From sequence record PQ863256.1: a stretch of DNA of 64,000 nucleotides; one strand, given 5' to 3'. Below the pieces are notes generated by a model. The model saw nothing but the letters and a program-made list of their open reading frames with translations, had not been told where the DNA came from and ran no database searches. Made by a program: the position numbers and the translations under genes. Source of the stretch: Escherichia phage Ptacy1479. Below are positions 4,644 to 62,843 of the stretch, one piece after another; position 1 is the first letter of the stretch; the number at the start of each line of letters is the position of its first letter.

Positions 4644-5654
4644 ATGGGTGCAGGTGGTTTTCGTAAGAACACAGGTCGCAACAACACCACACTCCCGTAC
4701 AACGTTGGGTTTCTCAATAATGTACAGGATACAGAAAATTATAACGTAGCCGTATACGATGAATTACAGAAAGTAAGTACAGCTACTAATCAGATGTTCC
4801 AAGCTATAGATGAAATTCATGATGAAATAGATGTTCGTATCAAAGCTCTAAATGCGATGAATCTACAGTTTGATGAACTTGAGAATAGAATCACTACAGA
4901 GATTGAAACTGCTATTGCAGATATTCAAACACAGATGGGTAATCTATCCACTGATGACATTTGGGATAACTCGGTACAACCACCTGTCAAGCTTGAAAGT
5001 TCTATCTCAGGGATTAAGACTAGCATTGAAGGGAATGATCTAAAGATTCAAACTGTGCAAGGTATCGTCAATGACCAAGGGGAGGAGATAGCTCTAGTTC
5101 AAACAGAACTCACTTCACAAGGGCAACAGATTACCGATGTTGATGGAAGAGTAACTACAGTTCAGAACTCTCTTTCTCAGTATATGAAGCTATCTGAATA
5201 TGAAGCTACTTGGGGTGTTAACTCTTCTGTAAACGGAAAATATGCTGGTGTTAAATTAACTAACAATGGAGTTAACAGCCAATTCCAAGTAACAGCAGAT
5301 AAATTTGTTGTTGGTAATGGAACAACAGGGAACACTCCTTTTGTTTTTGAAAACGGTAGAGCAAAAATGGAGTTTGCTGACATAAAGAACGTCAACATAA
5401 CTACTGCTCAGATCGCTAACGCTAGAATACAGTGGGCCCAAATTGATAATGTCAACATCACAAACGCACAGATTCAGAGTTTGTCCGCTGATAAAATTAC
5501 AGCTGGTTCTATGAGTGGGTCTAATTGGAGACTAACTGTTGGTGGTGATTTTGTCATGGGTGGTACGGGTGGTTCTCAGTTGTGGATGAATGGAAACAGA
5601 ATAGATTTTTATGATGGAAGTGGTGTTCTCAGAATAAGAATAGGGAGTTGGTAA
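4644..5654 (+). CDS. tail fibre-like protein with coiled-coil region
   Basis: Start moved to ATG 4644 preceded by GGAGG and downstream of the terminator; heptad-like N-terminal half, beta-rich C-terminal half with repeated NVNIT(N/T)AQI segments. Confidence 0.4.
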   Translation: MGAGGFRKNTGRNNTTLPYNVGFLNNVQDTENYNVAVYDELQKVSTATNQMFQAIDEIHDEIDVRIKALNAMNLQFDELENRITTEIETAIADIQTQMGNLSTDDIWDNSVQPPVKLESSISGIKTSIEGNDLKIQTVQGIVNDQGEEIALVQTELTSQGQQITDVDGRVTTVQNSLSQYMKLSEYEATWGVNSSVNGKYAGVKLTNNGVNSQFQVTADKFVVGNGTTGNTPFVFENGRAKMEFADIKNVNITTAQIANARIQWAQIDNVNITNAQIQSLSADKITAGSMSGSNWRLTVGGDFVMGGTGGSQLWMNGNRIDFYDGSGVLRIRIGSW

Positions 5655-47134: not shown

Positions 47135-47742
47135 ACTTACTCCTGTTGTTTACACTCGTCAATAACCCACTGATAAGTGGATTGCTCAGAAAAGAAACAC
47201 TGAATAAATCCAGATGTTCTCTGCGTTACCAGTGCTAGTGCACAAATCACTACCGCTGCTGCTAGCAGTTTTAAATCTAATTTAGACATATTTCCTCTCA
47301 TTGAATTTAAAAAAGGACTCTCCGAAAAGAGCCAAGCTTTAAATCCAAAAAAAAGATATTACCCAATATCTGTGGATAACCTGCTCTTAAAATATCTATC
47401 CGACGGATGTTTGAGGAACACTCCTCGCCCTAGCATCGGCCCCATACGGGAAATATATTAAGATTAGGTTAGTTGAGTCAGAATAACTCACATAGCCCTC
47501 CGAGGAAGGCTATAGGCGTTACTACAACTAAAAATCACCTGATTTTACAAAACTATCACTAAGAATTTCGTCAATCTCTTTGCTAGTCAAATCTTTCCTG
47601 AACCAGCAACAAGGAACATCCACTCATTGACCAGAGTTGTTCTCTACAGAACATCGATTCCCTGTCTTACTCTTGCATTTATAGGATTTTCCTTTATCTA
47701 GGCGATAGTGTAATCTGTAAACGACAGACACAAGTGTTATCA

Positions 47743-49206: not shown

Positions 49207-49518
49207 CTATTTGAGTTTCAGGCTAATATTAAGGTGCATACATGCCCTGTTCTGTACAGCAGCATAGCTTCTGCCGAGCATGTCAGCCATTCTCTGAATA
49301 GACATAAACCCGGCATTACGGATAAGGAACTGGTCTTCTTCTTTAGACCACTTAACTCGGATTACAGCTCTAGAGATACCAAACTTAGTGCAAGCTGTAT
49401 TAACTGCATTCTCCGTTACATTCATAATCTGAGCAACCTCTTGAACAGAGTACTCTTTGATTAGTCTCCGAAGATTTTCAATCTGTATCGGAGTCCATAT
49501 AGTTCTTCGAGCTTTCAT
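49207..49518 (-). CDS. putative DNA-binding protein with two tandem HTH-like repeats
   Basis: Two about 40 aa repeats (WTPIQIENLRRLIKEYSVQEVAQIMNVTENAV / WSKEEDQFLIRNAGFMSIQRMADMLGRSYAAV) resembling sigma region-4 or Myb-like HTH. Confidence 0.35.
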   Translation of the reverse strand: MKARRTIWTPIQIENLRRLIKEYSVQEVAQIMNVTENAVNTACTKFGISRAVIRVKWSKEEDQFLIRNAGFMSIQRMADMLGRSYAAVQNRACMHLNISLKLK

Positions 49519-49563
49519 ACATCCTCCAATTAAATATTTATATAAGACTTGCTTAGATAAAGA

Positions 49564-49597
49564 TTCAATAAAATAGGGGGAGGGGACGAATCCTCCC
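49564..49597 (-). terminator. rho-independent terminator
   Basis: - strand stem GGGAGG-ATTCGTCC-CCTCCC followed by CCTATTTTATTG. Confidence 0.4.
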
Positions 49598-49810
49598 TTA
49601 TCCTATTAATTAATATTGCATGTAAGATCTAACAATCGGTTGCCTTTGTAGGAATAAGCGTTATGCTAATCCAGCACTAAACTCCCGCCCCCCTTAGTGG
49701 GCTGGGTTATTAAAGGGTAACGCCCTTATGGGCTAGTTACGTGAATGTTAGTTTGATAGGAGATCTGAAGTCCTATCTCAAAGGACTCTCGTAAGAATCC
49801 TTCACGATAG

Positions 49811-49996
49811 TCACGCTTTGAGCGTGGTACAGATTAATGTTGCATGTCTTTGGTTATACAGTTCGAAGTAACGAGGCTTGCTCCAGTCTCTGTCTCTGGT
49901 AAATGATTGAAGGATGAAGTGTCTGTCACACCCAAGCCACTCAGAAACATCCATCGCTAGACGTATAGGAGAACCTCTGAACTCTTTCCTTTCCAT
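49811..49996 (-). CDS. hypothetical protein
   Basis: 61 aa ORF. Confidence 0.25.
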   Translation of the reverse strand: MERKEFRGSPIRLAMDVSEWLGCDRHFILQSFTRDRDWSKPRYFELYNQRHATLICTTLKA

Positions 49997-50005
49997 CCTA
50001 ACCTC

Positions 50006-50239
50006 TTACTTTTTGACGGGAAGAATCATATCCCACAGCCATGCCCACAAAATAATGGATATAAGAATCACAGCAACGATGGGCCATAGAAAAACTATAA
50101 TCGCTATCTTTGATAAGTTTGGTTCGTTACCCCACCCTCTGAACTCGACACTACCTTTTACATCGAGGAGTTTTATCAGAGCTGAAACTGTCACCATACC
50201 TATCAAGTAGACAATCAAGATACTAACAAGACTGGTCAC
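50006..50239 (-). CDS. small integral membrane protein (two predicted TM helices)
   Basis: Hydrophobic segments LVSILIVYLIGMVTVSALI and IAIIVFLWPIVAVILISIILWAWLW. Confidence 0.4.
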   Translation of the reverse strand: MTSLVSILIVYLIGMVTVSALIKLLDVKGSVEFRGWGNEPNLSKIAIIVFLWPIVAVILISIILWAWLWDMILPVKK

Positions 50240-51505: not shown

Positions 51506-51580
51506 TGGCGTTCCCTCGTGGAATCGAACCACGAATAAGAGCTTAGAAGGCTCCAGTTATATCCGTTTAACTAAGGGAAC
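51506..51580 (-). tRNA. tRNA-Arg(UCU): tRNA-Arg (anticodon UCU)
   Basis: Manual fold: acceptor GTTCCCT/AGGGAAC, D-stem GTTA/TAAC, anticodon stem GGAGC/GCTCT with loop CTTCTAA, T-arm CGTGG-TTCGATT-CCACG, discriminator G, encoded CCA; 75 nt. Confidence 0.8.
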
Positions 51581-53410: not shown

Positions 53411-53856
53411 GAATCCAGAAGCCTTCCAGTTTCAGAGCACCATTAGCTACTGCATCCATACGTTCAGGGCGGTTCATACGTTTGGTTGATACTTTCATAC
53501 CTATCTCTCTTTGTTAGTGGAGGCATTATTGCCAGTTGATATAAGGGATAGCCCTAGTCAGTAGACTAATCCTGACCGCGTACTCATTGCCGACCTTCTC
53601 TGCCTAAGAGTTCAGGTTCTAGAGCTATCTCTTATTCCAACTGGTGAAGACTCCCTACCCCTAGGAAGTCTCCTAAATCCCAAACCAATACGTACCCCTA
53701 CATATCGGAAAGTCTATCGAAAATTAACAGGTTTTAGTCTAACACCGGATGTTCGAGCAAGCTCTCCCTAGCGGTGCGGCATATGCCTGATTGATATAGT
53801 TAATGAGGAACACCCTCACATAGCCCTCTGATAAACACAAGGGCTATAAGTCGATG

Positions 53857-61970: not shown

Positions 61971-62843
61971 TCACTTACTAGCCTTAATACAGTTGGCTAA
62001 ATTAACGTGAACGGTATAAACAGCATTATCAGCGTTATTATAAACAGTTGTGGCGATCATCGACTCATTGACCGGACCGTAACTCACTAGATTCGTTACA
62101 GCTTTAACGTCTTCATAACGTTGTACAGTGCCAAATGTCACCATATCCGCATCGTTATCGGTACGCTTAAGCACCAAATCATTGTTAGGCTGACCGTCTA
62201 ACGTTTTAGATTGAAAGAGAACGCCATCATTAGTAACGTTGCTAAATTTCATCTTTAGCACGATGGAAGTGTCATCACTATCAGCACCGTTACAAATCAT
62301 CCAACCTTTATTGATGGAACTAGAGAAGACACTAGCCGCATCAGTTGCAGGAGCAGGACTAGCAACAGCCTTATCAGAAAGAGATGTGACCAGTGCACTA
62401 ACACCGATGGCTGCAACCAGTGCATAACTAGCCAGATTGACAGACTTCATTATCTTACTTGCAACAGTAGGCTTGATTGGCTGTTTCTTAGTTTTCTTGT
62501 TCCATGCTTCAACCATGACAGACAAGCGGGATAATTCAGCTTTCACATCGCGGCACGACTCGGGCCAATCCTTCTGATTCCAGCTATCTAAATTTGCCTG
62601 AATGTAACAATTGATAGCGTCCTGCATATCGGTAAAGCCATTCTCTTTGAACGTGCTTTCATCTTCACACTGTAAAGCGTTCGCAGTAGAGTTAATGATC
62701 AAGCAAGCCAACATAACGGAATTTTTGAATCCTTTACGTGCGCTTTCGTTTTCCATCCACGCAATAGGACTACCAACAGTTAAGCCCAAAGAGGAAAGAC
62801 TTTCGTTTGCTTTGTTCAAGTGGTTAATCGCTACTTTTGACAT
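61971..62843 (-). CDS. bitopic membrane protein, first gene of the - strand block
   Basis: 290 aa with central TM LASYALVAAIGVSALVTSL. Confidence 0.4.
   Translation of the reverse strand: MSKVAINHLNKANESLSSLGLTVGSPIAWMENESARKGFKNSVMLACLIINSTANALQCEDESTFKENGFTDMQDAINCYIQANLDSWNQKDWPESCRDVKAELSRLSVMVEAWNKKTKKQPIKPTVASKIMKSVNLASYALVAAIGVSALVTSLSDKAVASPAPATDAASVFSSSINKGWMICNGADSDDTSIVLKMKFSNVTNDGVLFQSKTLDGQPNNDLVLKRTDNDADMVTFGTVQRYEDVKAVTNLVSYGPVNESMIATTVYNNADNAVYTVHVNLANCIKASK

Follow-up and report, generated by a model that had tools for sequence, protein, structure and literature searches.

A conserved modular structured RNA element in an early intergenic gap of a phiEco32-group coliphage and in gamaleyaviruses

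The early region of Escherichia phage Ptacy1479 raises the question of what occupies a gap of 292 nt (positions 49519-49810) between two minus-strand open reading frames (ORFs), 49811..49996 and 49207..49518, in the 64,000 nt of sequence record PQ863256.1 that were analysed here and are called the window. The window belongs to a phiEco32-group (Kuravirus-like) coliphage whose relatives belong to the subfamily Gordonclarkvirinae, mostly to the genus Kuravirus, and the 1.3 kb round the gap is 89-97% identical, in the parts that align, to SU10, NJ01, 172-1, KBNP1711 and Paul. An initial annotation of this DNA had described about 290 bp without ORFs on the minus strand and had read them as a short discrete structured RNA ending at a terminator. 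The gap is indeed free of coding capacity at this level, as no ORF of at least 20 amino acids lies wholly within it in any frame and a 39-aa TTG ORF on the plus strand (49457..49576) overlaps only its 3′ edge. Comparative sequence analysis supports a real and strongly conserved structured non-coding RNA element at 49805-49573 on the minus strand, about 235 nt long. It is one copy of an undescribed modular structured-RNA family present in Gordonclarkvirinae (Kuravirus, Suseptimavirus, Nieuwekanaalvirus) and in the unrelated Gamaleyavirus. The initial observation is partly confirmed and its interpretation partly supported.

A query made of the gap only matched 132 phage records, about 97 of Gordonclarkvirinae and about 35 of Gamaleyavirus. 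Among the Gordonclarkvirinae 76 matched at 95% identity or more and the Suseptimavirus/ECBP2 group at about 77%, and the gamaleyaviruses (G7C, PhAPEC5/7, Bp4 and pSb-1; N4-like Schitoviridae) matched parts of the query only. Compared with 12 window-type (K1) relatives, the 233-nt element is 97-99% identical in 11 and 94% identical in the 12th, while the gene for the helix-turn-helix (HTH) protein shows 81-97% and the next two genes 66-94% in the same relatives, and the non-coding stretch is thus the best-conserved sequence of its neighbourhood. In the kuravirus-like genomes inspected the match always starts with the base that follows the upstream stop codon, whichever gene lies upstream, and in the kuraviruses examined the element ends where the leader of the next gene lies. 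The element is also the only DNA similarity between the window and the three gamaleyavirus loci that were compared. No chromosomal homologue was found in 5,426 E. coli genomes, and motif scans of IMG/VR, the JGI/ENA metagenomes and GTDB returned kuravirus-like or gamaleyavirus-like contigs. The element is unannotated in the deposited genomes inspected, in which nothing lies under the match but flanking genes, spurious ORFs at its edges or a neighbouring transfer RNA (tRNA). No coding sequence (CDS) covers its core in the kuravirus-like genomes inspected, and the short CDSs annotated by the depositors at the 3′ edge in EK5, EK010 and EP335 are antisense or lengthen the downstream gene at its 5′ end.

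As minus-strand RNA, 265 nt of the region fold at -80.9 kcal/mol (z = -4.0), and none of 200 shuffled sequences was as stable. Read 5′ to 3′ on the minus strand, the element is a chain of the hairpins hp1, hp2, hpB, hpC1, hpC2 and hpD. The first, hp1 (49805-49779), begins 3-5 nt after the upstream stop codon and has a 9-bp core, AAGGAUUCU-UACG-AGAGUCCUU (49802-49781), with a UNCG-type tetraloop, lengthened by G-U and U-G pairs up to 49805/49779; it occurs once in the window and folds at -14.2 kcal/mol (z = -3.0). In hp2 (49777-49755), GAUAGGA-CUUCAGAUC-UCCUAUC, a 7-bp stem closes a loop of 9 nt, of which the first 7 do not vary, columns 57-63 of the alignment reading CUUCAGA in all 28 sequences compared. 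A long-range helix, P3, joins CUAAC (49751-49747) to GUUAG (49633-49629) and encloses hpB, hpC1 and hpC2; it is predicted both by the single-sequence minimum-free-energy fold and by RNAalifold, and it is paired in 28 of 28 sequences. These three, hp1 and hp2 as the best-supported hairpins and the long-range helix, had been missed by the initial annotation, and two of the three hairpins that it did list need correction. Its GGGCGTTACCC does not form a hairpin of its own and lies inside hpB (49740-49717; GUAAC-UA-GCCC-AUAA-GGGC-GUUAC, 9 bp, bulged; -10.8 kcal/mol, z = -3.3), where GGGC pairs with GCCC and GUUAC with GUAAC. Its CACGC...GCGTG, at 49826-49812, lies within the last codons of the upstream ORF and falls outside both the interval that it was meant to describe and the conserved element, which starts at 49809. 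The sequences CCCGCCCCCC and GGGCTGGG, put forward as a further hairpin, are not simple complements, but an imperfect bulged arm is found there, namely hpC1 (49706-49684; CCCAGCCC-ACUAA-GGGGGGCGGG), which is GC-rich (z = -1.4).

Further downstream, hpC2 (49672-49651; GGAUUAGC-AUAAC-GCUUAUUC(C)) has an internal U-U mismatch and one G-U pair and is nested within a short 3-bp helix, P4 (UGC/GCA). It is followed by the most conserved stretch of all, a block at 49634-49615 (UGUUAGAUCUUACAUGCAAU) whose GUUAG is the 3′ strand of P3 and which is invariant save for one R in columns 199-214 of alignment A3. Within this block UCUUACAUG, present in all 28 sequences, is invariant and predicted to be single-stranded, and UCUUACAUGCAA is an invariant unpaired stretch between the multi-branch domain closed by P3 and hpD. 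In both phage groups the loops and 9 nt of unpaired sequence do not vary. The block together with hpD (query positions 175-245) is the sole part that aligns with the most distant gamaleyaviruses. Its (A/G)UCU and the AGAU of the hp2 loop may form a pseudoknot, a candidate that is pairable in every sequence (U-A in 11, U-G in 16, C-G in 1) with no double change. An A/U-rich insert (49614-49607) leads to hpD (49606-49573), which consists of an outer helix AUAGG/CCUAU that is invariant in the 28 sequences, an internal loop AUAA, an inner helix GGGAGG/CCUCCC at 49597-49578 and the loop AUUCGUCC, and which folds at -18.1 kcal/mol (z = -2.4). A U-tract follows at 49572-49566 (UUUAUUG) and renders hpD terminator-like in the window variant only; in this variant it pairs with an upstream A-rich run to give a 17-bp hairpin of -18.1 kcal/mol. 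The leader of the HTH gene, 49568-49516, reads TTGAAT...TTATATAAAT and then GGAGG-N5-ATG, with the gene starting at 49518, and it is kept even where the first downstream gene differs, as in phiEco32 and Paul. The protein encoded there (49207-49518) matches Sigma70_r4_2 (E = 3e-7), in agreement with its initial description as an HTH gene, and is labelled a D5-like transcriptional regulator in the annotation of relatives. The neighbouring genes are early genes, short, tightly packed and likewise on the minus strand.

Conservation of the secondary structure in related phages, proposed as a check in the initial annotation, was examined in the 28 distinct sequences by a MAFFT alignment and an RNAalifold structure of 32 pairs, in which hp1, hp2, P3, hpC1, P4 and hpD are recovered. 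In this automatic alignment 97.8% of cells are paired, against 42-56% when the partners are slid by 1-3 columns, and 9 of the 32 pairs are altered on both sides, two of them in hpC1. Its covariation score of 0.222 compares with 0.148±0.007 after shuffling and was reached in none of 500 shuffles. A hand-curated alignment that adds hpC2, the full hpD and the candidate pseudoknot gave 95.6% paired cells and compensatory change in 12 of 49 pairs, again unmatched by any of 500 shuffles. One telling case is hp2, with a stem of GAUAGGA/UCCUAUC in one phage group and GAUAAGG/CCUUAUC in the other. Comparison of kuraviruses with gamaleyaviruses shows two of its pairs double-changed, one from G-C to A-U and one from A-U to G-C (13 versus 14-15 sequences), and 99% of cells are paired. 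One internal pair of hp1 is U-G, C-G in L028 and U-A in L029, and the hairpin that takes the place of hp1 in gamaleyaviruses has a compensatory U-A to C-G change in L030. In hpC2, where 84% of cells are paired and 5 of 8 pairs are double-changed, one pair is A-U in the window, G-U in phiEco32 and G-C in Paul, and the U-U mismatch is replaced by G-U in NJ01 and by A-U in G7C. The inner helix of hpD is mostly GGGAGG/CCUCCC and is AGAGGG/CCCUCU in L018, with three pairs double-changed. Compensatory substitution of the kind expected of a structured RNA is thus present, though in few independent events.

The short discrete transcript of roughly 200 nt first proposed was examined for a promoter and a terminator of its own. 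A consensus scan of the minus strand upstream of and within the element called no sigma-70-like promoter, though weak or atypical promoters could escape such a scan; no sigma-70 site was called in the HTH-gene leader (49568-49516) either, and the upstream flank is not conserved, which speaks against an independent small RNA (sRNA) gene with its own promoter. TTGAGA-N17-TATCAA (inside hp2), TTGTTA-N17-TAATTA and TTGAAT-N17/18-TTATAT/TATATA were discarded by eye as promoters for their poor -10 hexamers, and the phiEco32 gp36 promoter motif TAATGTATA (PMC4281155/PMC4331800) is missing from the transcribed strand. In the transcription map of SU10 the early promoters are confined to the region ahead of CDS125 and the interval from CDS120 to CDS121, with terminators elsewhere (PMC4281155, Table S2), and the gp100/gp99 spacer, which is the equivalent of the gap, has no promoter or terminator listed (PMC4281155). 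The spacer thus falls inside a long early operon, and with no nearer promoter on the map some 30 downstream early genes depend on read-through. A literature search on kuravirus transcriptomes and on the G7C non-coding region, which did not cover the primary phiEco32 transcription papers, gave nothing relevant.

The terminator placed at 49564..49597 is borne out as far as its stem and U-tract are concerned, since the consensus scan found GGGAGG-ATTCGTCC-CCTCCC at 49597-49578 followed by CCTATTTTAT, so that the window has the GC-rich stem-loop and U-rich tract of an intrinsic terminator (GGGAGGATTCGTCCCCTCCC then CCTATTTTAT, 49597-49568). As a pattern, however, it does not exceed chance, with 3 such sites in the surrounding 2.5 kb against 1.6 expected. 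The hpD of ECBP2 is also terminator-like. The U-tract is lacking after hpD in SU10-type kuraviruses, which read CCUAUUCAUAAAC, and in gamaleyaviruses, which read CCUAUUAUGAAC, and no terminator was called after hpD in either; the terminator features are accordingly neither conserved nor placed at the end of a transcription unit. With its hairpin conserved and covarying and its loop almost invariant, hpD is better seen as a structural or recognition element that may act as a leaky terminator in the window lineage. The element is probably not a self-contained gene running from promoter to terminator, and the short discrete transcript does not hold in the form first given, as there is no promoter, the position is in mid-operon, the U-tract is variant-specific and the length of about 200 nt lacks a defined 5′ end. 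A discrete RNA could still arise by processing. The sequence CCCUUUAAUAA after hpB was considered as a boxA and dropped, being not conserved in other variants.

Membership of a known RNA family was addressed for the whole window with Rfam 15 at gathering thresholds, which gave only a tRNA at 51509-51580; this is the sole tRNA found by ARAGORN in the window, tRNA-Arg(UCU) at 51506-51580, 1.7 kb from the element. The Rfam search that had been recommended at the outset yields no family match in the gap even at E<=10, at which 49300-50100 has two plus-strand matches of chance level, SNORD20 with 17 bits and CssrA with 15 bits (threshold 93). ARAGORN and the Rfam tRNA clan (E<=10) are blank in the gap for tRNA or tRNA-like sequences, and ARAGORN and Rfam are blank in the window for transfer-messenger RNA (tmRNA), standard or permuted. 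The hpD loop AUUCGUCC has 8 nt and no conserved A58 position. On this account hpD was rejected as a T-arm or as an analogue of the tmRNA D-loop (GGAUUCG), the loop being of 8 nt, CCA lacking and no model matching; the hp2 loop as an anticodon-loop mimic (UUCAGAU) has too weak a signature, and nothing supports a role like that of the phi29 pRNA. T4-type PeSL cassettes, repeated pairings of an early promoter and a stem-loop at many gene borders, do not fit, with hp1 and hp2 present in one copy each in 64 kb and no promoter. The seed-like UCUUACAUG and hairpin of an Hfq-type or 3′ untranslated region (UTR) sRNA occur in 28 of 28 sequences, with the U-tail in the window-type variant only. As the Rfam, tRNA and tmRNA tests fail and the definition of a terminator applies only locally, the element is a phage-encoded structured non-coding RNA outside every described family.

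By analogy, its manner of working would be most like that of the T4 species 1 and 2 RNAs and of sRNAs derived from 3′ UTRs. T4 species 1 and species 2 RNAs (rnaC/rnaD) are small stable RNAs co-transcribed with the phage tRNA cluster and have no promoter of their own. The element resembles them in being structured, non-coding, phage-encoded and promoterless, and in gamaleyaviruses it also lies in the tRNA region; as it ends there 12 nt before a tRNA-like gene, tRNA-processing enzymes would release it. It differs from them in having no sequence or Rfam relationship, in standing between protein genes in kuraviruses and in lacking a CCA-type 3′ end. CpxQ and SroC are enterobacterial sRNAs derived from mRNA 3′ UTRs. 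Like them the element starts after a stop codon, is promoterless and has a conserved unpaired stretch before the terminal hairpin, and the window version also has an A/U-rich spacer and a U-tail; at about 235 nt with six hairpins it is, however, much larger, and the U-tail is not family-wide. With intrinsic terminators and attenuators it shares the GC-rich hpD stem followed by UUUAUUG, but hpD covaries without a U-tract, has a conserved loop and stands in mid-operon before genes that need read-through. The RNase III (ribonuclease III) sites R0.3 to R1.3 of T7, between early genes, each consist of one irregular duplex some 20 bp long or longer, and cleavage there leaves protective 3′ hairpins on the upstream messages. 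These too are conserved intergenic hairpins in a long early transcript of the host polymerase, whereas the element is multi-domain, has stems mostly of 5-11 bp and occurs once per genome. A last likeness is to permuted tmRNA (RF04321), since the gamaleyavirus element lies near a tag-like template and SU10-type kuraviruses keep a neighbouring hairpin, module E, described below; the window, in contrast, is without module E, tag or tRNA-like domain, and its hpD resembles GGAUUCG only superficially.

The arms of the element are modular. hpB is the variable arm and is replaced, in the alignment, by GCUCA-AUGU-UGAGC in ECBP2-type kuraviruses and in gamaleyaviruses. hpC1 comes in two forms or is missing, being AGCCC-CUCAU-GGGCU in the ECBP2 and L006 types and absent from G7C-type elements, and the gamaleyavirus hp1 is a different hairpin. 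The ECBP2 type combines the kuravirus hp1 and hp2 with hpB and hpC1 of gamaleyavirus type. Module E, a further hairpin of about 19 bp 3′ of hpD, is found in SU10-type kuraviruses and in gamaleyaviruses; it is lacking in the window, so the window element is a truncated variant. Its sequence is CUAUCGGAGAGUGCAUUAG...CUAGUGUACUCCCCGAUAG-UUUU, at about 1445-1545 in L013 (SU10) and about 1640-1725 in L003, with several compensatory changes between genomes. In ECBP2-type genomes (L011 at about 4785-4820 on the minus strand; L025 and L027) a second hp1-like hairpin, GAAAGCAUUCU-UCCG-AGAGUUCUUUC, follows directly after hpD, and with its UNCG tetraloop it places hp1-type hairpins on both sides of the element. 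One of these contigs, L025 (OERT01002574.1, 2088 bp), is 92% identical to the gamaleyavirus PhAPEC7 over 1-1464 and 88% identical to the kuravirus ECBP2 over 1265-2066. Its join falls within the shared element, so that the contig may be an artefact of assembly across the repeat common to both, or else a genuine recombinant between the families.

In gamaleyaviruses the element stands after the last ORF of a rightward gene block and opens about 1.6 kb without a credible ORF, which closes at a single strong terminator at its far end. The order there is a first hp1-hp2 unit, more hairpins, the shared element, module E, a tag-like template and tRNAs. The template, about 150 nt downstream of the element, reads AUAAAU-GCA AAC GAU GAU GUU GUU CUG AUG GCG GCG UAA and would encode ANDDVVLMAA*; a second allele gives ANEEAYLMVA*, and L015 has two synonymous third-position changes (GCG GCG to GCA GCC). 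It was located at 1776-1808 of L003 (PhAPEC7) and also in L002, L006, L012, L015, L017, L019 and L023. Together with module E it scores 33 bits (E = 9e-5) against Rfam tmRNA_permuted (RF04321), below the threshold of 47 bits. ARAGORN called no tmRNA in the gamaleyavirus loci, and no tRNA-like domain with alanine identity was located in them. Genes for tRNAs (Ile, Ala-like and Cys) and fragments bearing a T-arm follow the template, and in ShWW44-type genomes a tRNA-like gene begins 12 nt past hpD. As tRNAs and template follow and there is nothing protein-coding downstream to regulate, the gamaleyavirus element is part of an RNA-gene cluster. Several sequences of this cluster are tRNA-like, contain a T-arm and are uncalled or oddly called by ARAGORN (L003 1898-2230 and L019 1256-1331). 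Among its oddities are a 121-nt tRNA-like RNA ending in ACCA and a 'tRNA-???' with a 2-nt anticodon, and the 'tRNA-Ala(CGC)' has no G3-U70 and scores only as weakly tRNA-Sec-like.

What the element does is addressed by a reading that we put first tentatively, giving it a little under an even chance, namely that it is cut out of the polycistronic early message and survives as a stable RNA, with hpD as its 3′ end and the invariant loops as contacts. The element would belong to the transcript of the long leftward early operon, without a promoter of its own and starting directly after the upstream stop codon, and host RNases would excise it to leave a stable RNA of about 240 nt or a shorter 3′ fragment. 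Its protective 3′ end would be hpD, which in the window phage may also be a leaky terminator or attenuator, and the hp2 loop CUUCAGA, the hpD loop AUUCGUCC and UCUUACAUG would be surfaces recognised by an RNA or protein partner. The sequences themselves show its structure, conservation, covariation, strand, family distribution and lack of a promoter signal, whereas its processing and stability, and action in trans if there is any, are our inference. A stable RNA is preferred because plain stabiliser or terminator hairpins need neither invariant loops nor an unpaired 9-mer nor 235 conserved nt, and because kuraviruses keep the element alone, apart from its RNA-cluster neighbours. A more far-reaching version, which we regard as unlikely, sees in the element a phage RNA gene that is exchanged horizontally, here in its minimal autonomous form, and that would act in trans via its loops and UCUUACAUGCAA and would found a new class of counter-host RNA. 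Its target would be a host RNA or protein of translation, ribosome rescue or RNA-targeting defence, and the G7C-like element would head an RNA-only operon coding also for a tmRNA-like tag template and for non-canonical tRNA-like RNAs, with the kuraviruses keeping the element alone.

Several observations weigh against a stable RNA made from the minus strand. The hpD of gamaleyaviruses is without a U-tail, and for this reason a classical Hfq-type 3′ end is not a feature of the family. In the 64-kb window neither the invariant stretch nor the hp2 loop has complementary targets above chance, one site with 2 mismatches (62451-62464) being equalled in 14 of 100 shuffles. The independent events of covariation are few because most double changes separate only two or three lineages, and the shuffle control takes no account of relatedness. 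P3, the outer hpD helix and the pseudoknot are always pairable and never double-changed, and for lack of a double-sided change they remain proposals. The plus strand folds as well as the minus strand (z = -3.99), so fold energy cannot pick the strand. G-U cells outnumber A-C cells by 107 to 19 on the transcribed (minus) strand, a count biased by the curated structure having been drawn on the sense strand, and the 19 A-C cells are G-U on the opposite strand. In both phage groups the element runs the same way as the genes and tRNAs on its flanks, and together with the G-U excess this points to the minus strand of the window as the functional RNA. The structured non-coding RNA of the initial annotation is supported by the lack of an ORF, a z-score of -4, conservation above the flanks, compensatory changes, the G-U excess and UNCG tetraloops, and the secondary structure is kept in the related phages (28 sequences, with 9 compensatory pairs in the automatic and 12 in the curated alignment).

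The strongest competitor to a stable RNA is purely cis punctuation of the early message, somewhat unlikely in our estimate, in which hp1 protects the upstream 3′ end, hpD terminates partially and the hairpins guide RNase E or RNase III, with no functional RNA product. It agrees with the blank promoter scan and with an element that, in all kuraviruses examined, reaches from the upstream stop codon to the leader of the gene that follows. The terminator-like hpD of the window and of ECBP2, the 17-bp hairpin formed by the U-tract and the upstream A-rich run in the window variant, and the hp1-like hairpins at module borders (at the start of the gamaleyavirus cluster and after hpD in ECBP2) also speak for it. 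A stabiliser or terminator does not, however, require 235 nt, invariant loops or an invariant unpaired 9-mer, the element is conserved above the flanking genes, the terminator feature is not family-wide, and the gamaleyavirus element has no downstream ORF to regulate. Were cis punctuation true, termination at hpD would set the ratio of upstream to downstream early genes, and an element that is only an attenuator or processing site would refine the transcription map of the 27-kb early operon. An RNA gene in its own right, with a promoter just upstream, the hairpin at 49597-49578 as its terminator and a primary transcript of about 200 nt, is very improbable. In its favour are a structured region without coding capacity, a hairpin and U-tract of terminator type, and TATCGT at the 5′ edge, which looks like a -10 hexamer and scores as a promoter in ECBP2, with GTGACA contributed by the upstream gene. 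Against it, the scan called no promoter in the window, what lies upstream of TATCGT varies from relative to relative and therefore offers no conserved -35 or TG extension, the U-tract is specific to a variant, and an efficient terminator would cut off the downstream early genes, for which SU10 has no nearer early promoter.

Quite improbable, too, is a relic or an element that matters as DNA, that is, a captured fragment of the gamaleyavirus tRNA/tmRNA-like cluster serving as homology patch, recombination linker, origin or protein-binding site. The mosaic of modules between phage groups (ECBP2 type), the truncation of the window version relative to the SU10 type with module E, mosaic breakpoints on the flanks of the element, the 2-kb metagenome contig that joins PhAPEC7-like and ECBP2-like halves within it and the equal folding of both strands would all suit such an origin. 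A relic would nevertheless hardly be carried by essentially all matched Gordonclarkvirinae coliphages at 96-99% identity, above that of adjacent genes. It is disfavoured by the compensatory and G-U-intermediate changes within kuraviruses (A-U, G-U and G-C in hpC2; U-G, C-G and U-A in hp1) and by the five-to-one excess of G-U over A-C on the transcribed strand, and UNCG tetraloops, being a feature of the RNA level, count against it as well. A hidden translated ORF of fewer than 20 aa, finally, has next to no chance of accounting for the conservation. Mini-ORFs do occur, such as AUG CAA UAU UAA within the invariant stretch, and the short CDSs of EK5, EK010 and EP335 touch the 3′ edge; those CDSs are, however, antisense or extensions of the downstream gene and leave the core uncovered, no frame has an ORF of 20 aa or more, indels of 1-30 nt between variants disregard the reading frame, and substitutions follow the paired sites.

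A function worth exchanging between phages is suggested by conservation above the neighbouring genes in what is the sole sequence common to two unrelated lineages of virulent coliphages. The element is absent from Rfam and unannotated in the genomes inspected, and phiEco32-like and G7C-like phages are often isolated for phage therapy, phiEco32 being also a model of sigma-factor takeover. If the stable RNA is real, it would extend the short list of virulent-phage non-coding RNAs by a new family and give a handle on the RNA-only cluster of gamaleyaviruses, including its tmRNA-like template.

Three further database findings touch on the distribution of the element. Wider relatives were sought in IMG/VR with a looser hp2/P3 motif, and the 17 new loci obtained were rejected as chance matches without the stem. 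An 8-kb contig, L035 (CALKAR010000070.1), in a metagenome-assembled genome of an uncultured Peptococcaceae matches the window along its entire length at 90-94% identity; it is kuravirus DNA that was wrongly binned with a Firmicutes genome. An apparently unrelated and GC-richer contig, L008 (IMGVR_UViG_3300020045_002007, 63.8 kb), carries the identical 20-mer GGGAGGATTCGTCCCCTCCC at 2499-2518, right after a stop codon, where it is one arm of a small Y-shaped structure (GCGACA ... TGTCGC); the other modules of the element are lacking.

Two more ORF-poor gaps lie on the minus strand of the window. One, at 47302-47742 (about 440 nt), contains tiny ORFs only and has a terminator-like GGCTCTTTTCGGAGAGTC followed by CTTTTTTAAA at 47333-47316. 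The other, at 53411-53856 in the same early operon, is structured (446 nt, z = -2.5) and 93-98% identical in Gordonclarkvirinae. A piece of about 67 nt within it (about 53621-53555; core GTCGGCAATGAGTACGCGGTCAGGATTAGTC), preceded by a small covarying hairpin, is 79-81% identical to P22-like Lederbergvirus phages, in which its counterpart lies in the same orientation in the spacer from repressor to N, about 35 nt before the start of the antiterminator N.

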